A DNA stretch of 47,905 bases, taken from positions 1-47,905 of the forward strand of contig JAANWY010000149.1 in assembly GCA_018263655.1 (NCBI GenBank). The letters are read 5' to 3'. The number at the start of each line of letters is the position of its first letter. Position 1 is the first letter of the stretch. The notes beneath the pieces are model-generated. The model ran no database searches and had not been told where the DNA came from. It was given only the letters and a program-made list of their open reading frames with translations. The stretch comes from Anaerolineales bacterium (lineage in GTDB: Bacteria; Chloroflexota; Anaerolineae; Epilineales; JAANWY01). The position numbers were made by a program, and so were the translations under genes. This document shows positions 2,735 through 46,336 of the stretch, piece by piece.

Positions 2735-4829
<2,095 letters not shown>

Positions 4830-8620: not shown

Positions 8621-10024
8621 ATGAACTTCAATCTCAAGCTAGAACCACCCGACCAGGCGGCAATCTGGGCCATCGGCGTGCTGGTGGTCCCGCTGCTGGC
8701 ACTTGTCGCATATTTCTCGTATGTGCTCTACTTCCGTGATGTCTGGGCATCCTGCCCCCCCGACTGCCATCAGGCAGATCTTACGACGGTCGACGTCCAC
8801 CAGATGGATTTCCGCCGGGCTGATCTCAGCGAGGCCAGCCTGACGAGCGCCAACCTGGAGGGGGTTGACCTGGAGGGGGCAAGGCTGTACTTTGCTAACC
8901 TCAAAGAGGCGAACCTGCGCGGAGCAAATTTACAGGCGGCCAGCCTGCGGGGGGCGCTGCTGTTCGGCGCAGATCTGAGCCAGGCGGACCTGAAACAGGC
9001 CGACTTGAGCGGCGCTCGTCTGGGTGAAGCCAACCTGTTCGAAGCCGACCTGCGGGGGGCGAGCCTCCGGGGCACTGATCTCAATAGGGCGCATCTGCGC
9101 GCCGCGCGAGTTGATGAAACGACGGTTCTGAGCCCGAAGTGGAAACTGGTGTGGGAGATTGTGAACGAAGACCAGGCCGGCCGGAGCCTGTCGGGCACGG
9201 ACTTGAGCCAGGCGGACCTCAGAGAGGCCGATCTCCAGGCGGCCGACCTGCGACAGGCGAATCTGAGATCGGCCAACCTTGCCGGTACTGACTTGACGAC
9301 AGCACGTCTGGCAGGCGCTCAGCTACACCAGGCGACCGTGGATGAGACGACGAAGATCGCTCCCAAATGGCGCCTCGTTTGGCACATCGTCAACCACACC
9401 GACCCGGATCGCGCTTTGGCCGGCGCTGACCTGAGTGGAGCCAATCTGAACAACGCCTACCTCCGCCGCGCCGATCTTACAAGGAGCAATCTGGATGACG
9501 CAACCTTGGTGGAAGTTGATCTGCGTCAGGCTAACCTGAGTAGTGCGAGCGTGCGCCAAACCGATTTGACTGAGGCCGCCTTGCACCAAGCGAACTTGCA
9601 GGGTGCTGACTTGACGGGAGCCAATCTGCGGGGCGTCGATCTGCGCGAATCAAATCTGCGCCAAGTTATCTTGAGCGAGACAACCGTCATCTCGGCCCAA
9701 TGGCGGCTGGTCTGGGAAATTGTCAACCATGGGGCAGCGCACCGCAATCTCGCTCAGGCACGCTTGAGTTGGGCTGACTTAGCCGGCGCCGAACTGGCAG
9801 GTGCGAATCTGGAAAACGTCATTTTCAACAACACCAACCTAAAATATGCAAACTTGGCCGGCGCCAATCTGACCGGCGCTGACTTGCGGAAAGCCAACTT
9901 GCGCGGGGCCGACCTGACCGGCGCCAATCTGACAAACGCTGATCTCACGGATGCCGATCTTAAAGGCGCCATCCTGACAGAGACTCAACGACAAGGCGCC
10001 ATCTTACCCGACGGCAACAATTGA
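8621..10024 (+). CDS. Membrane-anchored pentapeptide-repeat protein
   Basis: N-terminal TM helix, then four blocks of A(D/N)LxxA(N/D)L pentapeptides separated by three conserved linkers (DETT...W.LVW.IVN). Confidence 0.9.
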   Translation: MNFNLKLEPPDQAAIWAIGVLVVPLLALVAYFSYVLYFRDVWASCPPDCHQADLTTVDVHQMDFRRADLSEASLTSANLEGVDLEGARLYFANLKEANLRGANLQAASLRGALLFGADLSQADLKQADLSGARLGEANLFEADLRGASLRGTDLNRAHLRAARVDETTVLSPKWKLVWEIVNEDQAGRSLSGTDLSQADLREADLQAADLRQANLRSANLAGTDLTTARLAGAQLHQATVDETTKIAPKWRLVWHIVNHTDPDRALAGADLSGANLNNAYLRRADLTRSNLDDATLVEVDLRQANLSSASVRQTDLTEAALHQANLQGADLTGANLRGVDLRESNLRQVILSETTVISAQWRLVWEIVNHGAAHRNLAQARLSWADLAGAELAGANLENVIFNNTNLKYANLAGANLTGADLRKANLRGADLTGANLTNADLTDADLKGAILTETQRQGAILPDGNN

Positions 10025-11948: not shown

Positions 11949-12206
11949 TAGTAGTGCTCGGCAGAAATCCTTCACCAGTTAGATCAAGACAGCATCCCTT
12001 CGACAAGCTCAGGACGCCGCCTGAGTAGGCCGGAACGCAGTGGAGGCCGTATCGAAGGGTGCGGGTTCAGGATAGTACGGTGCTTAGGTTCGAGCCGCAC
12101 CCCCTTCGTCAAGCTCAGGACGTCGCTTCGATACGCTTCGCTACTCAGGATGCTAGCCGTGATTTCGACGGATAACTGGTGACTCATTTATGCCGAGTAC
12201 TAATAG
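11949..12206. repeat. Composite REP-rich element bounded by inverted repeats tagtagtgctcggca / tgccgagtactaata
   Basis: The core (about 12012-12160) is homologous to 13750-13890. Contains rc copies of the REP-C motif CGTCCTGAGCTTGTCGAAGGG. Confidence 0.7.
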
Positions 12207-20386: not shown

Positions 20387-20435
20387 AGTCAGTGAACAGT
20401 GAACAGTCAACAGTGAACAGTCAACGACAAACAGT
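20387..20435. repeat. STRR-like heptamer tandem array ((G/C)AACAGT x ~7) directly upstream of trpD
   Basis: gtcagt gaacagt gaacagt caacagt gaacagt caacgac aaacagt. Confidence 0.8.
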
Positions 20436-20485
20436 GGTCGGCCTGAACAGTGCTTACCGTTCACTCAATGTCATCAAGTTGAGTC

Positions 20486-20620
20486 AGGTGACCGGCACGT
20501 AGTCAGTTTTGACTATCAGGATCGGTAATAGAGCGGGCAGGATTACCATGTTTGATAGTCAAAACTGATTACGGAAATCTGGCCGCGAATTGAGTCTGAA
20601 TTCACAAGTGCCGGTCACCT
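20486..20620. repeat. Nested palindromic element (aggtgaccggcac ... gtgccggtcacct)
   Basis: Outer 13-bp arms plus an inner hairpin gtcagttttgactatca / tgatagtcaaaactgat. Confidence 0.75.
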
Positions 20621-20628
20621 CAAACCTC

Positions 20629-20790
20629 TAGACTCGGTAAATCGCAGAGCCCGTTCGTAGTGAGCGCGGATGCGCACATCCGTCCGGAGCGCAGTGGAGT
20701 GCCGTCGTGGCGCCGCAGGACGCAGGGACGCCACTCCTGGCTTCGCCTCCGTGGCTGACTACGAACCTAGTTTGAGATTTACCGAGACTT
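20629..20790. repeat. Family-B element, copy B2
   Basis: Near-identical to 6913-7076. Confidence 0.85.
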
Positions 20791-20812
20791 AATGACATTG
20801 ACTGAACACTGA

Positions 20813-21385
20813 TCACTGTACACCGGTCGCTTCCAAAAAGTTTCTCAACAGTCGCCGGCCGCCCTCGGTCAGAATGGATTCTGGATGGAACTGGACGCCG
20901 AACATTGGGTAGTCGCGGTGGCGTAGTCCCATCACTTCCCCTTCGTCGGTGAAGGCGCTGACCATCAGTTCAGCCGGCAGCGGTTCTTCGACGATTAGGG
21001 AATGGTACCGCGTGGCCGTGAAGGGGTTCTTGAGGCCGGCGAACAACCCGGTGCCGTCGTGATAGATCGACGACGTCTTGCCATGCATGAGTCGGGGCGC
21101 ACGGCTTACCACACCGCCAAAAACGTGTCCCATACACTGGTGACCTAGACAGACGCCCAGAATCGGCACATCTTGGTGGAAGTGCTCGACAACGGCGTTG
21201 GAGATGCCACCGTCAGCCGGCGTGCCAGGGCCAGGCGAGATGAGGATATGGGTTGGCTCCAGGGCCTCGATTTCTTCCAGCGTGGTCTGGTCATTGCGTC
21301 GCACCACCACATCGGCACCCAATTCGCCGAGGTACTGGACCAGGTTGTATGTGAACGAGTCGTAGTTGTCGATTACGAGGATCAT
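20813..21385 (-). CDS. trpG: Anthranilate synthase component II (glutamine amidotransferase)
   Basis: [38 protein letters not shown] at 21385 preceded by AAGGAG. The longer track ORF runs over repeat DNA. Confidence 0.95.
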
Positions 21386-21498
21386 CGGATGCTCCTTCAC
21401 AGAGAGAGCTGTTGGTGCTGAGAGAGTATACGTCACGCCTATTGACGTAAGACGTAAAACGTGAAACGTAACGGGCTTCAGCAGACAGCTCTGACGTT

Positions 21499-22503
21499 TC
21501 ACGAGTCAGGTATGATGAACCCGACATGCTCTTTGACACGCTTCAGCGTCGGTGTCGATCGCCGGCGTGCTTCTTCAGCGCCAGCTTCCAGTAATTTGTC
21601 GATGGTGGCCGGGTCTTCGGCCAGCTTGTTGTAGCGTTGCTGGATGGGGCGCAGCCCCTCGATGGCGGCCTCGGCTACTTCCGTTTTCAGATCGCCGTAG
21701 CCTTTGCCGGCGAAGTGGTCTTCGATTTCCTGGCTGCTCTGGCCGGTGAACACCTGGTAGATTGTCAGCAGGTTGTTGACGCCGGCCTTCTCTGGATCAG
21801 CGCTAAACACGATGTCGCGGCCCGAATCTGTGACCGCCCGCCGCACGGTGGCCCGAATGTCGTCTGGATCATCTAGCAATCCGATGCCGTGGTAGCGGGT
21901 GTCGGTGCTCTTGCTCATTTTGGACGTCGGATTGTCCAGGCCCATGATCCGCGCGCCGGCCTTGGCGATGAGTGCCTCGGGCAGCACGAACGTCTCGCTG
22001 TGCAGGTGGTTGAAGCGGCGGGCGATGTCGCGCGTCAGCTCCACATGCTGGCGTTGGTCTTCGCCGACTGGAACAAGGTCGGCGTCGTACAGCAGGATGT
22101 CGGCAGCCTGCAATACAGGGTAGTCTAGCAATCCTGTGCTGACGCTTTTCTGCTTCGCCGCTTTCTGCTTGTACTGCGTCATACGTTCCAGCCAGTTGAC
22201 GGGCGTTACACAGTTAAGGATCCAGGCTAGCTCAGCGTGGGCCGTGACGTGGGATTGGATGAAGAGCACGCTGCGGTCTGGGTCGATGCCGCATGCCAGC
22301 AACAGGCCGGCCAGTTTCCGCGTCTGGGTGCGCAGCTCCTCGGCGTCTTGTGGCACCGTGATCGCATGCAGATCTACGATGCAGAAGATGCTGTCGTAGG
22401 CGTCTTGGTTATCGACCCAGCGCTGTATTGCGCCGAGATAATTGCCGATGTGCAAGTTGCCCGATGGCTGGATGCCGGAGAATACGATTTTCTTATCGTT
22501 CAT
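21499..22503 (-). CDS. trpS: Tryptophan--tRNA ligase
   Basis: [17 protein letters not shown] (HIGH-type), [27 protein letters not shown]. Confidence 0.95.
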
Positions 22504-22540
22504 ATGTTGGTCACCTCTCTCATGTGTGTATGGTAACTAC

Positions 22541-22674
22541 TTTGACAATGTCACATTAACATAACAGTGACTCTTTGATCGCCGAAGGTCTCCTGACCGA
22601 GGCGAAATGGGCTCGGTCAGGAGACCTTCGGCCAACGTGGGGCGGCTATGTGACATTGTCAAGATAGTCACTGT
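22541..22674. repeat. Family-D element with a perfect 21-bp hairpin, between trpE and trpS
   Basis: gccgaaggtctcctgaccgag (22581-22601) / ctcggtcaggagaccttcggc (22612-22632), flanked by TGACAATGTCA-type small palindromes. Confidence 0.8.
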
Positions 22675-22683
22675 GTGTGTCTG

Positions 22684-24171
22684 TTATTCGAGTCCTCGTT
22701 CTGCGATTGTGATCGCTTCTGCCAGTGCAGCCGCTTTATTTACTGTTTCCTGATACTCGCGAGCTGGATCGCTGTCAGCGACGATGCCGGCGCCGGCCTG
22801 GATGTACGCCGTGTCGTCCTGCTTTAGGATGGTGCGGATCGTGATGCAGGTGTCCATGCTGCCGCCGTAGCCGAAGTAGCCGATAGCGCCGGCGTAGGGG
22901 CCACGACGCAGACCTTCTAGCTCTTCGATGATCTCCATGGCACGCACTTTGGGCGCCCCGGAGACAGTGCCGGCCGGGAATGTGACCCGCAGCAGATCAA
23001 AGGCACTGTGGTTCCCGTTGAGCCGGCCGCGCACGCTCGAGACGATGTGCATCACGTGTGAGTAGCGCTCGATCGTCATCAGTTCCGGAACCTCGACCGT
23101 GCCGTAGCCACACACTCGGCCCAGGTCATTGCGGCCCAGATCGACGAGCATGACGTGCTCAGCGCGTTCTTTCGGATCGGCGAGCAGCTCTTCAGCCAGG
23201 GCGGTGTCTTCTTCAGGCGTTGCGCCGCGCCGGCGGGTGCCGGCGATGGGGCGCACTTCGGCTATCCCGTGGTCGAGCCGTACCAGCATCTCTGGCGAGG
23301 AGGCGATGATGTCCAGGCCGCCGAGTTCCACGTATACCATGTAGGGCGAAGGATTCAGCATCCGCAGGGCGCGGTAGATGCTGAAGGAGTCGATTTCGGT
23401 CTGGCGGGCGAAGCGCTGCGACAGTACGACCTGGAAGATGTCGCCGGCAGCGATGTAGTCTTTGGCTTGACGTACGGCAGCTCCAAATACCTCTGGCGAC
23501 ATATTCGACTCGAGGTCGCGGGAGCGTGCTGCGTGCTGTGGGCTGCGTGGTGCGTGATGCGTAAGGGGTTGGCGCAATCGCTGAGTGATGTGGTCTATGC
23601 GATCGATGGCGTCGTCGTAGGCCGCGCGCGGGTCGCCCTCGGTGTGGGTCAGGGCGATGATGAGCAGCTTATGTTTGACGTGGTCGAAGACGACGAGCGT
23701 GTCGGTGAAGAGAAAGTCGCACAGGGGTAGACCGAGCCCCTGCTCCGCCGTGGCCGGCAGGCGCTCGAAGAAGCGGACGAGATCGTAGCTCATGTAACCC
23801 ACAGCGCCACCGACGAAGCGCGGCAAACCTGGCGTCTCGACTAGTTGATATTCATTCAATAGCGCCTCGACCACCGTCAGTGGGTCCTCGTCATCTGCCA
23901 ATGGCTGCGTTTTCGCAGAGCCGTTGTCGCGGATGACGACCCGATCACGATACCCCGTAAGCCGGCGCTGCGGAGCGGCAGCCAGGAACGAGTAACGTCC
24001 GACCTGCTCCCCGCGCTCGACGCTTTCCAGCAGAATGGCCGGCCCGTTGCCGCGCAGCTTCAGGAACACCGATACTGGCGTCTCCATGTCTGCCGGCAAT
24101 TCCTGGTAGATGGGAATCAGATTGCCTTGCTCAGTAAGCCCTTCAAATTCCTCGAAAGTTGGTTTGATCAT
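22684..24171 (-). CDS. trpE: Anthranilate synthase component I
   Basis: LLESVE, GDIFQVVLSQRF, NPSPYM, GTLSGAPK-like (GTVSGAPKVRAMEIIEELE), GAIGYF. ATG at 24171 with GAGGAGG upstream. Confidence 0.95.
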   Translation of the reverse strand: MIKPTFEEFEGLTEQGNLIPIYQELPADMETPVSVFLKLRGNGPAILLESVERGEQVGRYSFLAAAPQRRLTGYRDRVVIRDNGSAKTQPLADDEDPLTVVEALLNEYQLVETPGLPRFVGGAVGYMSYDLVRFFERLPATAEQGLGLPLCDFLFTDTLVVFDHVKHKLLIIALTHTEGDPRAAYDDAIDRIDHITQRLRQPLTHHAPRSPQHAARSRDLESNMSPEVFGAAVRQAKDYIAAGDIFQVVLSQRFARQTEIDSFSIYRALRMLNPSPYMVYVELGGLDIIASSPEMLVRLDHGIAEVRPIAGTRRRGATPEEDTALAEELLADPKERAEHVMLVDLGRNDLGRVCGYGTVEVPELMTIERYSHVMHIVSSVRGRLNGNHSAFDLLRVTFPAGTVSGAPKVRAMEIIEELEGLRRGPYAGAIGYFGYGGSMDTCITIRTILKQDDTAYIQAGAGIVADSDPAREYQETVNKAAALAEAITIAERGLE

Positions 24172-24227
24172 GTCTCGCCTCCTCGGCCGTTCAACGTCGA
24201 GCCGAATACGGTTATCCTGTCGTGAAC

Positions 24228-24288
24228 AAAAAACTCCCGCCCCTAGCAGGGACGGGAGGTGATGGCTTCCCGTGGTACCACCCTCGTT
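24228..24288 (-). promoter_or_regulatory. T-box sequence, antiterminator and intrinsic terminator immediately upstream of trpE
   Basis: Minus strand reads AACGAGGGUGGUACCACGGGAAGCCAUCACCUCCCGUCCCUGCUAGGGGCGGGAGUUUUUU. It contains the GGGUGGUACC T-box core, the antiterminator AGGG[UGGUACC]ACGGGA..UCCCGU-CCCU, and a competing 10-bp terminator stem plus U6. Confidence 0.85.
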
Positions 24289-24462
24289 AGACTGGCTCAC
24301 GTCTGGCTCACGTCTGGCTTACGTCTCGTAGTAACGGTGCTAAGGATTGAGAATTAGATAACTTCCCCAATTGAAGCCGAAATCTCAGGCAATTCAACGG
24401 CAAAATGGGCTTAATCCTTAGCCTTAATCGTTGTGACTGCGGTGAACGACTAAGATTATTAC

Positions 24463-24595
24463 GTAACCGTTCAGGTGGTGGGGACCCTTGCGAAGGTTTG
24501 CCAATCGCATTCAGGTTGAGGTGCCCCTCGCCAGTCGAAAATCGGTCTCTTGCCAAGGTGACTCTTAACCTTCGCAAGGGTGGCTGAACGCTTAC
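24463..24595 (+). mobile_element. Family-A element, copy A2, flanked by an 8-bp direct duplication (MITE-like)
   Basis: ATTATTAC at 24455-24462 and 24596-24603 flanks GTAACCGTTCAGG...GCTGAACGCTTAC. Lies inside the trp leader. Confidence 0.8.
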
Positions 24596-24625
24596 ATTAT
24601 TACTACGGCTCAGAGAGAACCAAAA

Positions 24626-38039: not shown

Positions 38040-38345
38040 ATGATTCACATGGGCGGCGCCGGCACGCCAGCGCTGGATCGGTCCGCCGTCGAAACCGCCG
38101 CTGAGCACCCCAACATCACCCTGATCGGCAGCGCCATCGGCGAACGGGCGATCTTGAACGCCATCAAGATATTGGGTGCTGACCGCCTCTGCTTTGGCAG
38201 CGACACGCCCTTCTGTCTGATGCACGTCCGGCTGGCTATGTATCGGGCACTGCTGCGGGACTTCGATGAGGATGAACAGGCCAAGATCCTCGGTGGCAAC
38301 CTAGCACGTCTGCTAATGATTGAGAACCAAATAGCCTCCACATGA
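38040..38345 (+). pseudogene. C-terminal remnant of an amidohydrolase-2-type metal-dependent hydrolase
   Basis: ...ARFLMIHMGGAG...RLCFGSDTPF...ILGGNLARLL. The upstream frame is open only from 37944. A GH42-like C-terminal stub (VEVTERWQGDQRLLFVLNHT) sits in another frame at 37919-37990. Confidence 0.5.
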
Positions 38346-38499
38346 CCCCTGAATCGAAATTTTAAGGAACCTTAAAGGAAAGTGCATCAAAGCCCGAAAA
38401 CCACAATCTGTTGGGATCCCGCCGCTGCTTCACCCTACATATAGTGGTTGAGGTTCCAAAAACTCATCGGAGTCCTCGAAACGAATTTCGAAAAAGCTC

Positions 38500-38528
38500 T
38501 TGACAAACGAGCCGTAATCCACTATAAT
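38500..38528 (+). promoter_or_regulatory. Perfect consensus sigma-70 promoter (TTGACA-17-TATAAT)
   Basis: TTGACA 38500-38505, 17-nt spacer, TATAAT 38523-38528, in a locally AT-rich stretch. Confidence 0.7.
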
Positions 38529-38535
38529 GCTTTAT

Positions 38536-38827
38536 ACAGAAGTCCTGAGAAGCATGAGGAACTCTAACAGAGGAAGATAGCTGGAAGTGTCCTGAAGGTG
38601 GCAAGCGGTGGAAGCTCCTCGCCAGGGGGGTGGAAGCCGTGAGTTAGTGGAAAGGTAGTGGCCCCAGGTGGCGCTACTGAGGAAGCTAACGGGCCGAAAG
38701 CTCGGTCGAAGGGTTGAGCCGGTAGGTGAGCCAGGGTAAGGGAGCCCTCCCGTGCAAGCGAGAGGAGGAGTAGGCTATCGGAAACTGGGTGAGATATCCG
38801 AGGTTACTTGGGACTTCTGCTTTTTTG
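38536..38827 (+). ncRNA. Candidate ~290-nt structured non-coding RNA, family unassigned
   Basis: No ORF longer than 8 codons. A 13-bp helix pairs the 5' end (38537-38549 cagaagtcctgag) with the 3' end (38807-38819 cttgggacttctg, two G-U pairs), followed directly by T6 (38821-38826). About 10 GGA/GGAAG motifs. Further long-range complementarities at 38576-38581/38774-38779 and 38615-38622/38758-38767. Confidence 0.55.
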
Positions 38828-38885
38828 TGCAAGACGTCGCTCTCACTGGGCGGCGTTTCTGTTTGAAGGCGAAAACGACCCGCGT

Positions 38886-39896
38886 TCACTCCCTCCGCTT
38901 GCGCCACTGATCAAACATGATCGCCAGGATGATGACTGCGCCGATGGCGGCCGGCTGCCAGTAGGTGGGGAATCCCAGCAGATTGAGGCCCGTGCGGATC
39001 GTCTGCATCAGCGCTGCGCCGATGAGCACTCCCAGAATGGTCCCCTCGCCGCCGAACAGGCTCACACCCCCAATGACCACCGCAGCGATGATGTCCAACT
39101 CATAACCTGTCGCGGCCGTGGGGGCTGCTACACCCAGGCGCGCCGTCATCAGGATGCCGCCGACGCCTGTGAGAAGACCACTCGACGTGTAGACGAACAC
39201 CTTGACCCAGTCTGTGTCGATGCCCGATACCCGCGAGGCCTCCTCGTCACCACCGACGGCGTAGATGTGGCGCCCGCGCACCGTCCGGCTGAGGAACAAG
39301 GAGACCAGCACTGCCAGGACGACCATGACGATGACGGGCAGCGGAACTTGCCACAACCCCAAAGGTACGTCCAATTGCCCTAGCATGTTGAAGCCCTTGG
39401 GCAGTTTGCGTACCGGCCAGCCGCCGGTGGCGCCGAAGGTGATGCCTCGGGCGACGCTCATCGTGCCCAGCGTGGCGATGAAGGCCGGCAGGCGGAAGCG
39501 GGTCACCAAGAGCCCGTTCGCCATCCCGACGATACCGCCGGCGAGCAGCCCCCCCAGCACGGCGACCGGGACGGGAAAACCGTTGGTGAGCAGCAGCGCC
39601 GCGCCGAGTCCCGACAGGGCCATATTCGAGCCCACTGAGAGATCGATGCCGGCGGTGAGAATTACCAGCGTCTCGCCAAAGGCGGCGATAGCGATCCACG
39701 AGAAGGCCCGCAGCATATTGAAAACATTGGTGGAAGTCAAGAAGGTATCCGTCGCTACGCTGAGGAGCCCACACCAGAGCAGGAAAATGATCAGGATGCC
39801 GATTTCCTGCAGGCTGATGAGGTCCCACCAGCTAGACTCGTTTCGTCGACCCAGCGCTTGTGGGGCCGGCGTTGCTGCTCCGGCTCGATTACTCAT
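38886..39896 (-). CDS. Sugar ABC transporter permease (RbsC/AraH family)
   Basis: 336 aa, about 9-10 TM, with [14 protein letters not shown] and RVSGI motifs. Confidence 0.85.
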
Positions 39897-39937: not shown

Positions 39938-40222
39938 GTAAGCGTTCAGCCGCCCTTGCGAAGGTTAGGAGGAGCCTTGGCAAATCGCAGAGCCCGTTCG
40001 TAGTGAGGCACGTAACGCAGTGGAGTGCCGTCGTGGTACCGCAGGGCACCGGGACACCACTCCGGCTTCGCCGTAACGCAGTGGAGTGCCGTCGTGGTAC
40101 CGTAGGGCACCGGGACACCACTCCGGCTTCGCCGTAACGCAGTGGAGTGCCGTCGTGGTACCGTAGGGCACCGGGACACCACTCCGGCTTCGCCTCCGTG
40201 GCTGACTACGAACCTATGCAAA
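39938..40222. repeat. Composite repeat: truncated family-A terminus fused to a family-B element containing 3 x 61-nt tandem units
   Basis: GTAAGCGTTCAGCCGCCCTTGCGAAGGTT at 39938-39966. 61-nt units start at 40011, 40072 and 40133 (cgtaacgcagtggagtgccgtcgtggtaccg.agggcaccgggacaccactccggcttcgc). Ends CTGACTACGAAC. Confidence 0.85.
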
Positions 40223-43256: not shown

Positions 43257-43270
43257 AAGACACCCCACTG

Positions 43271-43471
43271 CTCGCCGAGGTCTCCTGACCAAGGCGTATA
43301 CGGGCTCTTGTTATCACGCTCGCCGAAGGTCTCTTGACCAAGGCGTATACGGGCTCTTGTTATCACGCTCGCCGAAGGTCTCCTGACCAAGGCGTATACG
43401 GGCTCTTGTTATCACGCTCGCCGAGGTCTCCTGACCAAGGCGTATAGGGGCTCGGTCGGGAGACCTTCGCC
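43271..43471. repeat. Tandem array of 4 x 48-49 nt derived from the left arm of the family-D hairpin
   Basis: Units start at 43271, 43319, 43368 and 43417 (ctcgccga(a)ggtctcctgaccaaggcgtatacgggctcttgttatcacg). Only the last unit carries the complementary arm ctcggtcgggagacc. Confidence 0.85.
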
Positions 43472-43525
43472 CAGCATTGTAACAACGCCCAGCATTGTAA
43501 CAACGCTCAGCATTGTAACAAGTCG
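43472..43525. repeat. 3 x 18-nt tandem repeat (cagcattgtaacaacgcc)
   Basis: Units start at 43472, 43490 and 43508. Confidence 0.85.
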
Positions 43526-46204: not shown

Positions 46205-46336
46205 GTAACCGTTCAGGTAGTGGGACCCTTGCGAAGGTTTGCCAAGCGCATTCGGGTTGAGGTGCCCCTCACCAGTCGAAAATCGGCCTCTTGCCACGGT
46301 TATTCTAAACCTTCGCAAGGGTAGCTGAACGCTTAC
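46205..46336 (+). repeat. Family-A element, copy A3
   Basis: GTAACCGTTCAGGTAGTGGGACCCTTGCGAAGGTT...AACCTTCGCAAGGGTAGCTGAACGCTTAC. Same orientation as A2. Confidence 0.85.

Follow-up and report, generated by a model that had tools for sequence, protein, structure and literature searches.

Stand-alone structured RNAs such as 6S (RF00013), OLE and the raiA motif RNA have repeatedly proved important in bacteria. Wastewater sludge, sediments and hot springs are all rich in Chloroflexota; to our knowledge the noncoding RNAs of this phylum are almost unexplored, and the large surveys of such RNAs that we consulted list for it either Chloroflexi-1 alone (from Chloroflexus aggregans, and in Rfam) or nothing. 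Here we describe an element on the forward (plus) strand of contig JAANWY010000149.1 (assembly GCA_018263655.1, an Anaerolineales bacterium), of which a 47,905-nucleotide stretch, hereafter the window, was analyzed. An earlier reading of its letters (the original prediction) had singled out a candidate structured RNA of about 290 nt behind a perfect consensus promoter, and every string that it described lies where it said. Our analysis indicates that the element is probably the gene for a structured RNA, single-copy and vertically inherited, that is in no catalogue and belongs to uncultured relatives of Caldilinea in the Chloroflexota. The RNA is about 300 nt long and more conserved than the flanking proteins, and wherever we found it its promoter matches the consensus perfectly.

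The RNA resembles 6S and Ms1 RNA in being stand-alone, single-copy and presumably abundant, in the long stem that closes its 5' and 3' ends, and in its sigma-70-type promoter. Features in common with the raiA motif RNA, OLE, ROOL and GOLLD are an elaborate fold backed by covariation, in which multiway junctions and GNRA loops occur, a promoter and terminator of its own, and a narrow phylogenetic range; unlike those RNAs, it belongs to the Chloroflexota and matches no family, and we found neither protein genes associated with it nor a phage context. At about 290 nt it is also smaller than OLE, ROOL and GOLLD.

We compared the locus with Rfam 15 (4227 models) using cmscan, at gathering thresholds over the whole window and at E<=10 over 38300-38950. 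No model matched the RNA at either setting, where a confident match would have counted against the original prediction, and the homologous loci described below gave none at E<=1; ARAGORN found no tRNA or transfer-messenger RNA (tmRNA) in the window. RNase P RNA, tmRNA and signal recognition particle (SRP) RNA were set aside on these grounds, including the absence of a tRNA-like end, in agreement with the earlier search for hallmark strings of these RNAs and of riboswitches. Among the annotated neighbors in the window and in the homologous loci L249, L258 and L261, which by Pfam are ATP-binding cassette (ABC) transporters, CPBP proteases and small open reading frames (ORFs) without assignment, there is no gene for a reverse transcriptase, Cas protein, IscB/TnpB, recombinase, TROVE protein or other RNA partner. 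Retron msr-msd, IscB/TnpB omega RNA, IS110 bridge RNA and tracrRNA were rejected for want of such partner genes, with the HEARO and retron models also unmatched, and a bacterial Y RNA (YrlA) was rejected since the locus has no annotated TROVE neighbor, no tRNA-like element and no Rfam Y RNA match. We regard the RNA as new at the level of the RNA family, since it has none of the defining features of known families; stand-alone structured RNAs of bacteria are, as a general kind, familiar.

The promoter consists of TTGACA (38500-05) and TATAAT (38523-28) separated by 17 nt, and matches the sigma-70-type consensus at 12 of 12 positions. No other 12/12 site occurs in the window, and none of 100 shuffles produced any. 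Hexamers and spacing are identical in the window, L249, L258 and L261, with a spacer sequence that has diverged, and our promoter scan calls the 12/12 site in each of the three homologue lineages; the predicted transcription start is near A38536. Around it the GC content dips to 0.455 (38300-38599, versus about 0.6-0.68 in the flanks), so that both the promoter and the AT-rich pocket of the original prediction stand as described. Upstream of the -35 element, about 150 nt of AT-rich DNA can be aligned across lineages, beginning directly past the stop codon of an upstream gene or remnant that itself differs by lineage (an amidohydrolase remnant, a CPBP protease or a 133-amino-acid ORF). Its conserved blocks include AAATTTTAAGGAACCTTAAAG (38357-38377), which holds the palindrome TTAAGG-AA-CCTTAA, ACCACAAT (38400-38407), TATAGTGG (38440-38447), AAATTTTAAG(G/C)AACCTTAAAG, TAGTGG and an A-rich stretch right before the -35 element; a conserved second promoter or ORF was not found in 38355-38499. 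This region is probably regulatory, and its conservation and palindromes suggest that the strong promoter of the RNA is itself regulated, probably through these upstream blocks.

Homologues were found by walking along neighboring genes, with the permease P0005 as the first anchor and then the adjacent CPBP/Rce1-like protease; the permease homologues place the host near Caldilinea. Identical copies of the window locus are present in four Logan runs, and full-length homologues of the RNA occur in three more lineages, as the search proposed by the original prediction was meant to reveal: L249/L250 from Logan, L258-L260 from JGI, and L261/L262, contigs of the NCBI metagenome-assembled genomes (MAGs) GCA_003694395.1 ("Chloroflexi bacterium") and GCA_964474265.1. 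Together with the window, these make four independent lineages. In L249/L250 the copy is gap-free and 80% identical, and lies on the opposite strand of a contig that carries permease P0005 (83-84% identical). Scored with covariance model R1, which has 333 positions and 90 pairs, the eight copies reach 343-369 bits; in 245 kb of related loci the model detects no other match, and by blastn, nhmmer and this model the RNA is single-copy in the window and in each homologous locus.

Alignments A3 and A4 form the basis of our statements on conservation. Among lineages the RNA core is 78-87% identical, and a single indel interrupts it, the loss of 13 nt from the tip of hairpin B in L258-L262. The adjacent permease and protease genes are 74-78% identical in nucleotide sequence overall and 42-51% identical at fourfold-degenerate sites; the RNA is therefore more constrained than its protein-coding neighbors. 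Both strands of the basal rod and the junction around hairpin F are its most conserved parts, and on its 3' side the window and L249 do not differ at any position of AGTAGGCTATCGGAAACTG. This string is one of the conserved probes for the family, and the pattern GCAAGCGAG...AGTA[AG]GCTA could also serve in a plain scan.

The 292 nt 3' of the promoter have a minimum free energy (MFE) of -113.2 kcal/mol, with a z-score of -2.79 on the plus strand and -0.94 on the minus strand. MFE folds of the homologues reach z-scores of -4.0, -2.6 and -5.0, and that of L261 nearly reproduces the consensus fold, which was derived from six sequences with RNAalifold and comprises 90 pairs. Standard pairs form in 96.9% of the alignment cells, a share that falls to 37-47% in controls with each partner slid along by 1-3 columns. 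Twelve pairs have changed on both sides, versus 0-6 in the slid controls, and none of 500 shuffles reaches 12 (mean 6.6); these compensatory changes in the four-lineage alignment, a check suggested by the original prediction, lie mainly in P1, P5, hairpins A, B, C and F, and the terminator. Because a consensus fitted to the same data is circular, we separately took the fold predicted from the window alone and determined how homologue substitutions affect its pairs. The substitutions break 9, 14 and 4 pairs, versus 17.5, 21.2 and 14.8 under random placement, and so few broken pairs recur in only 1, 25 and 0 of 3000 permutations; the minus strand shows no such deficit. The structural signal is specific to the plus strand.

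In the consensus fold, a rod made of P1-P5 opens into a three-way junction with hairpin F and continues via P6-P7 into a four-way junction with hairpins A, B and C (Table 1). The original prediction had correctly paired the two ends of the RNA, just before the C and T6 at 38820-38826, and had also named the GATAGC/GCTATC helix that is now P5. Two mismatches in the terminal repeat of P1 become G.U pairs only on the plus strand, and one A-U pair has changed to G-C by compensation. The inner stem of hairpin A and the stem of hairpin C each show three compensatory and three one-sided changes with 100% of cells paired, and the basal stem of hairpin B shows one compensatory and two one-sided changes; the outermost pair of hairpin F occurs as CG, UA, GC and UG. 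Hairpin A ends in GCCA in the window and in GCGA in L258/L261, and the stem-loop of hairpin C (38700-38719) reads GCUCGGUC-GAAG-GGUUGAGC in the window and GCCUGGUC-UUCG-GGCCGGGC in L258. Two further pairings proposed earlier exist as strings and fail as helices in the comparison: CTCCTCGC does not pair with GCGA..GGAG, since its CTCCTC pairs with GGGGGG in hairpin A through three covarying pairs, and the hairpin CCGA-AAGC-TCGG is broken at three pairs in L249, with hairpin C in its place. The hairpins C, D and E predicted from the window alone were likewise supplanted by the comparative hairpin C.

Table 1. Features of the RNA locus in the window
Feature	Position	Strand	Remarks
AT-rich upstream region	38355..38499	+	blocks align in all four lineages
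Promoter	38500..38528	+	only 12/12 site in the window; hexamers and spacing kept across lineages
Structured RNA core	38536..38820	+	supported by MFE, homologue z-scores, the 90-pair consensus and R1 scores
P1 closing helix	38537-38549 / 38807-38819	+	13 bp; pair probability at least 0.99
Rod, 5' strand	38551..38581	+	pairs with 38774-38805; near-invariant purine-rich internal loops, e.g. A-GGAA (38571-75)
P1b, 5' strand	38551-53	+	three pairs
P2, 5' strand	38558-60	+	three pairs
P3, 5' strand	38562-64	+	three pairs
P4, 5' strand	38568-70	+	three pairs
P5	38576-81 / 38774-79	+	covaries: GC, AU and GU at two pairs
P6	38589-93 / 38740-44	+	from the consensus fold; mostly invariant, one mismatch in the window copy
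P7	38598-602 / 38730-34	+	leads to the four-way junction; mostly invariant, one mismatch in the window copy
Hairpin A	38605..38640	+	basal stem, GGAA/GGAA loop (38610-13 / 38632-35), 7-bp inner stem, tetraloop
Hairpin B	38643..38690	+	6-bp basal stem, purine internal loop (GGAAA / GAGGAA), variable tip
Hairpin C	38693..38727	+	3-bp base, GAAA/(G/A)GUA internal loop, 8-bp stem (38700-07 / 38712-19), GAAG loop
Hairpin F	38745..38765	+	invariant GCAA (GNRA) loop at 38753-56; three-way junction with P5 and P6
Rod, 3' strand	38766..38806	+	AGUA (38769-72) facing GAA (38584-86); 3' strands of P5-P1b; most conserved stretch
U-rich linker	38820..38833	+	C + U6 in the window; UCUUUCC in L258, CUUUUCAGG in L261
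Intrinsic terminator	38834..38864	+	stem ACGUCGC/GCGGCGU (38834-40 / 38850-56), 9-nt loop, tail UUCUGUUU

One local hairpin, UCCGAG-GUUA-CUUGGG at 38797-38812, competes with P1 and P2. It occupies the same columns in all homologues, and two one-sided changes are compatible with it, U to C in L261 and G to A in L249. The RNA might adopt it as an alternative conformer or pass through it as an intermediate of folding.

The 3' end of the RNA lies beyond P1. The U-run that follows P1 in the window is not conserved, and P1 with this run is probably not the main terminator. Every lineage instead has a separate hairpin and T-run 14-20 nt past P1, with stem sequences that are unrelated among lineages; our terminator scan calls it in L249, L258 and L261 and misses the window copy only since its loop exceeds 8 nt. 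Because this terminator is kept and the U6 is not, the 3' end of the predicted transcript is most likely near 38864, for a length of about 330 nt with the terminator and a folded core of about 290 nt.

Overall, the locus combines a conserved promoter and terminator, purifying selection, a strand-specific covarying structure and a lack of coding capacity, the general marks of a noncoding RNA gene. By its sequence it is very likely a real and independent structured RNA gene, and the original proposal of a new stand-alone structured RNA is borne out by the homologues, the covariation, and the conserved promoter and terminator.

The flanks of the gene bear on whether it could instead act in cis. 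In the window, the order is remnant, RNA and convergent permease, the last being a ribose-type ABC permease gene whose 3' end faces the RNA. The upstream remnant is clearly the C-terminal third of an Amidohydro_2 protein (Pfam, E 6e-10), next to a marginal C-terminal fragment of GH42 (E 3e-4), much as the original prediction had placed the site between gene remnants and the 3' end of a convergent ABC operon. In L249, a CPBP protease and a convergent permease flank the RNA, and in L258/L261 it lies between a CPBP protease and 133-amino-acid ORF on one side and a co-oriented ORF of 202-236 amino acids on the other. These lineage-specific flanks fit a stable RNA gene that has descended vertically while its surroundings were rearranged locally, and do not fit mobility or cis-regulation. 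It is accordingly very improbable that the RNA is a leader or riboswitch for a downstream same-strand gene, such as that for the 202-236-amino-acid protein of L258/L261. Such a gene does begin about 100-800 nt past the terminator in L258-L262, and the terminator comes directly after the structured domain. However, the next gene is the convergent permease in the window and L249/L250, where RNA, promoter and terminator are still fully conserved; moreover, the 202-amino-acid protein is without a homologue in the window, the terminator shares no nucleotides with P1 and is separated from it by a non-conserved linker of 14-20 nt, and no Rfam riboswitch matches.

The original prediction had named a 6S- or Ms1-like role, in which an abundant RNA binds RNA polymerase and modulates global transcription. 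Here the junction of P5, P6 and hairpin F would correspond to the "bubble", and the apical domain would be an elaboration. The consensus promoter, which implies high expression, speaks for this role, as do the 5'/3' rod of about 46 nt per strand that leads into an asymmetric junction and the stand-alone, single-copy, vertically inherited gene, similar in size to Ms1. Yet neither 6S nor Ms1 matches at E<=10, the fold has four branch points where 6S is a single rod with a central bubble, and the internal loops of the rod are invariant in sequence, a feature not known from the closing stems of 6S. Ms1 is, in addition, actinobacterial in distribution. On balance we consider a functional analogue of 6S or Ms1 improbable.

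The loops of the RNA bear on its mode of action. Symmetric purine loops lie between helices, with GGAA/GGAA in hairpin A and A-GGAA/GGAA-A in the rod, and G-to-A variation within them stays purine-only. Twice, AGUA lies opposite GAA (38769-72 with 38584-86, and (G/A)GUA at 38722-25 with 38696-98), which we take to be a loop-E/S-turn signature; the terminal loops we assign to the GNRA type (GCAA invariant, GCGA in two lineages) and to a GAAG loop exchanged for UUCG. Such modules are typical of ribosomal RNA (rRNA) and ribozymes. They recall the loop-E/sarcin-ricin and tandem G.A modules of rRNA, 5S rRNA and SRP RNA, though the Rfam models of those RNAs are unmatched and the resemblance is one of short modules only. 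Alignment A4 contains no long conserved unpaired stretch of the kind that would suggest an antisense seed. A Shine-Dalgarno mimic, GGAGGAG at 38763-69, was rejected, as it becomes GAAGAAG, GCCAAAG or GGAAAAG in homologues.

GNRA/UNCG loops, AGUA/GAA modules and GGAA loops, together with the lack of a long single-stranded seed and the RNA's own promoter and terminator, make a trans-acting, protein-binding RNA the most likely of the modes of action that we considered. That the RNA acts by binding protein, or as the RNA of a ribonucleoprotein (RNP), is a reading we hold tentatively, at rather less than even chances. In this model, transcription would begin at the consensus sigma-70 promoter near 38536 and end near 38864 at the separate terminator hairpin, and the plus-strand RNA would fold into the 5'/3'-closed rod followed by the three-way and four-way junctions with hairpins F, A, B and C. 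The folded RNA would then act in trans, binding one or more proteins through its invariant purine internal loops, and would serve as a scaffold or a sequestering RNP; base-pairing or cis-regulation would be less likely roles.

More ambitiously, the RNA might be the founding member of a new Chloroflexota-specific, highly expressed class of tertiary-folded RNAs, be it a ribozyme, a self-assembling particle or the core of a novel RNP; the architecture of the RNA would itself carry the activity, and the RNA would be neither a 6S-like nor a sponge-like regulator. We regard this as possible and doubtful. Less likely still, with only a slight chance in our estimate, is an ornate RNA machine of the ROOL, GOLLD, OLE or raiA type, a ribozyme or self-assembling RNA whose function resides in its tertiary structure. 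Its multiway junctions, GNRA and UUCG loops, loop-E-like and tandem G.A modules and highly conserved internal loops would suit such a machine, as would its two-fold symmetric GGAA/GGAA loops; one report (PMC12286853) shows that large bacterial RNAs of unknown function form homo-oligomers. The RNA is nevertheless shorter, at about 290 nt, than OLE, ROOL and GOLLD, matches none of these Rfam families, and has no phage or mobile-element context.

The composition of the RNA had suggested a protein sponge of the CsrA/RsmA type. It is indeed purine-rich (G 110, A 72, C 55, U 48), and the count of about ten GGA or GGAAG motifs given earlier was if anything low: we find 12 GGA, with five GGAAG versus 1.7 in dinucleotide shuffles (40 of 2000 reach five) and eight GGAA versus 3.3 (11 of 2000). 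In this it is like CsrB and RsmZ. However, the GGA motifs lie in internal loops or junctions (eight), in helices (three) or across a helix end (one), and never in a hairpin loop. Only 6 of the 12 are kept in all four lineages, the others becoming GAA, AGA or CGA, and no CsrB or Rsm model of Rfam matches; we therefore give the sponge hypothesis next to no credence.

It is just as hard to believe that the locus holds no functional RNA gene and is a transcribed repeat, a miniature inverted-repeat transposable element, or a decayed protein-coding fragment among the gene remnants. Such a reading could draw on the adjoining truncated amidohydrolase and GH42 fragments, on the inverted repeat formed by the RNA ends, and on strings of 8-10 nt in common with a family of repetitive extragenic palindromic (REP)-like elements that has ten copies in the window. 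The resemblance to this family seen in the original prediction is real and short: TCGAAGGGTT is common to three REP-like copies, and GTCCTGAG to the other half of the REP-like element. This string sits in the covarying stem of hairpin C and differs in L258, where it is replaced by UUCG/GGCC, so the resemblance is incidental. Also counting against a transcribed repeat, the 47.9-kb window and each homologous locus contain one copy apiece, with orthologous copies 78-87% identical where synonymous sites are saturated, twelve pairs with compensatory changes, and a P1 helix whose mismatches are G.U pairs on the plus strand only, beside its A-U to G-C compensation. As for a decayed gene, the region has no similarity to the genes at the corresponding site of locus L007 (AFOR, ADH and MR_MLE) or to any protein.

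Coding potential was assessed on both strands. The earlier statement that no ORF exceeds eight codons holds for ATG starts (the one at 38554 has eight codons) and fails for GTG and TTG starts, whose frames on the plus strand run to 14-39 or more codons. On the minus strand, which is pyrimidine-rich, 66-80 codons pass without a stop in places. Translations of every long stop-free frame here were compared with 5.8 billion proteins without a match, and the 13-nt indel of the homologues would shift any reading frame. The eight-codon mini-ORF at 38554-38580 (AUG AGG AAC UCU AAC AGA GGA AGA UAG, encoding MRNSNRGR) has no Shine-Dalgarno sequence; it shows synonymous changes in L249, becomes MRNSNRGK in L261, and loses its start (AUG to AAG) in L258-L260. 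It is probably coincidental.

The REP-like element itself has the form CCTGAG[C/T]-(3-30 nt)-TCGAAGG, often 3' of GCGACGT, and has no Rfam match. Its copies lie at 11997, 12020, 12284, 12322, 13555, 13751, 13828, 13896, 16873 and 28679 in the window and at 3399, 5367, 11897 and 11931 in L258, and L249, L261 and the Caldilinea loci lack it. A 22-nt insert that belongs to a different repeat family interrupts two of the copies, and at 13889-13926 the first half of the element forms a 12-nt tandem.

Several points weigh against the view that this is a single-copy, vertically inherited structured RNA that binds protein. All host organisms are uncultured, and the transcript is a predicted one. The covariation comes from four independent lineages and hence from few events, and P2-P4 never vary while P6 and P7 are nearly invariant, so that these helices are predicted ones that the comparison neither backs nor opposes. 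Protein binding would follow from motif types of known RNAs, and no partner gene is linked to the RNA. Relatives whose permeases are 76-83% identical (L005-L011 and L251-L254) lack the RNA at the syntenic site, and its distribution may be patchy, given the permease sites of L005, L007, L253 and L254 without it.

Two scans of whole collections also gave no further members. One, over genome contigs, demanded GGAAG or GGAAAG in hairpins A and B and returned 69 loci, all low-complexity coding repeats; the other, over metagenome contigs with TGGAAG...TGGAAG...GA...TGGAAAG, returned 51 loci, all noise. Yet these patterns were too strict: the homologues carry GGAAA, GGAAC or GAAAA where GGAAG-type loops were required, and JGI contigs and an NCBI MAG do contain the RNA, so its phylogenetic range is under-sampled. 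Scans of viral contigs, including one with a conserved 19-mer, yielded nothing real, and distant-mode blastn against plasmids and phages gave no match.

The alignment, covariance model and conserved probes make the distribution, expression and partners of the RNA testable, and with further members the family would be fit for submission to Rfam. Even as a lineage-specific regulator of limited range, it would be a clean new family of Rfam grade.

Near the homologues, the 133-amino-acid ORF (L258 7031-7432 and L261 11227-11628, both on the minus strand) is 92% identical between the two lineages, above its neighbors, has no Pfam or NCBIfam match, and is absent from the window and L249. It is divergent from the RNA and has an 11/12 promoter of its own, TTGACA-17-GATAAT (L258 7638-7610, L261 11705-11677). 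Its FTPDFYLP...LYVELT motif gives us the tentative impression of a PD-(D/E)xK nuclease. In L260, two weak matches to CRISPR-DR28 (3677-3700 and 3796-3819; E 0.14, under the gathering score) lie 119 nt apart, 3' of a 206-amino-acid ORF.

The window as a whole carries peptide and sugar ABC transporters, trp genes, sialic-acid genes and sugar kinases, and several of its intergenic regions are repetitive. At 40011-40194, where a spacer in the ribose-type ABC operon separates the permease gene from that for the binding protein, a 61-nt unit, CGTAACGCAGTGGAGTGCCGTCGTGGTACCGTAGGGCACCGGGACACCACTCCGGCTTCGC, forms three tandem copies of 99% identity. Single copies occur at about 6970, 20684 and 46352, and the unit has the look of a hairpin-forming intergenic repeat. 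In an ABC ATPase/permease spacer at 43270-43521, a 49-nt unit in tandem (3.8 copies, 96% identity) precedes a tandem repeat of 18 nt (3 copies), and two intergenic direct repeats of 134 nt (24481-24614 and 46222-46355), 87% identical, lie 21.7 kb apart. The trp cluster at 14825-24300 (trpE, trpG, trpD, trpC and a PALP enzyme) contains an embedded gene for tryptophanyl-tRNA synthetase (TrpRS), and Rfam detects no T-box or leader there. Finally, 8621-10024 encodes a pentapeptide-repeat protein of 467 amino acids.

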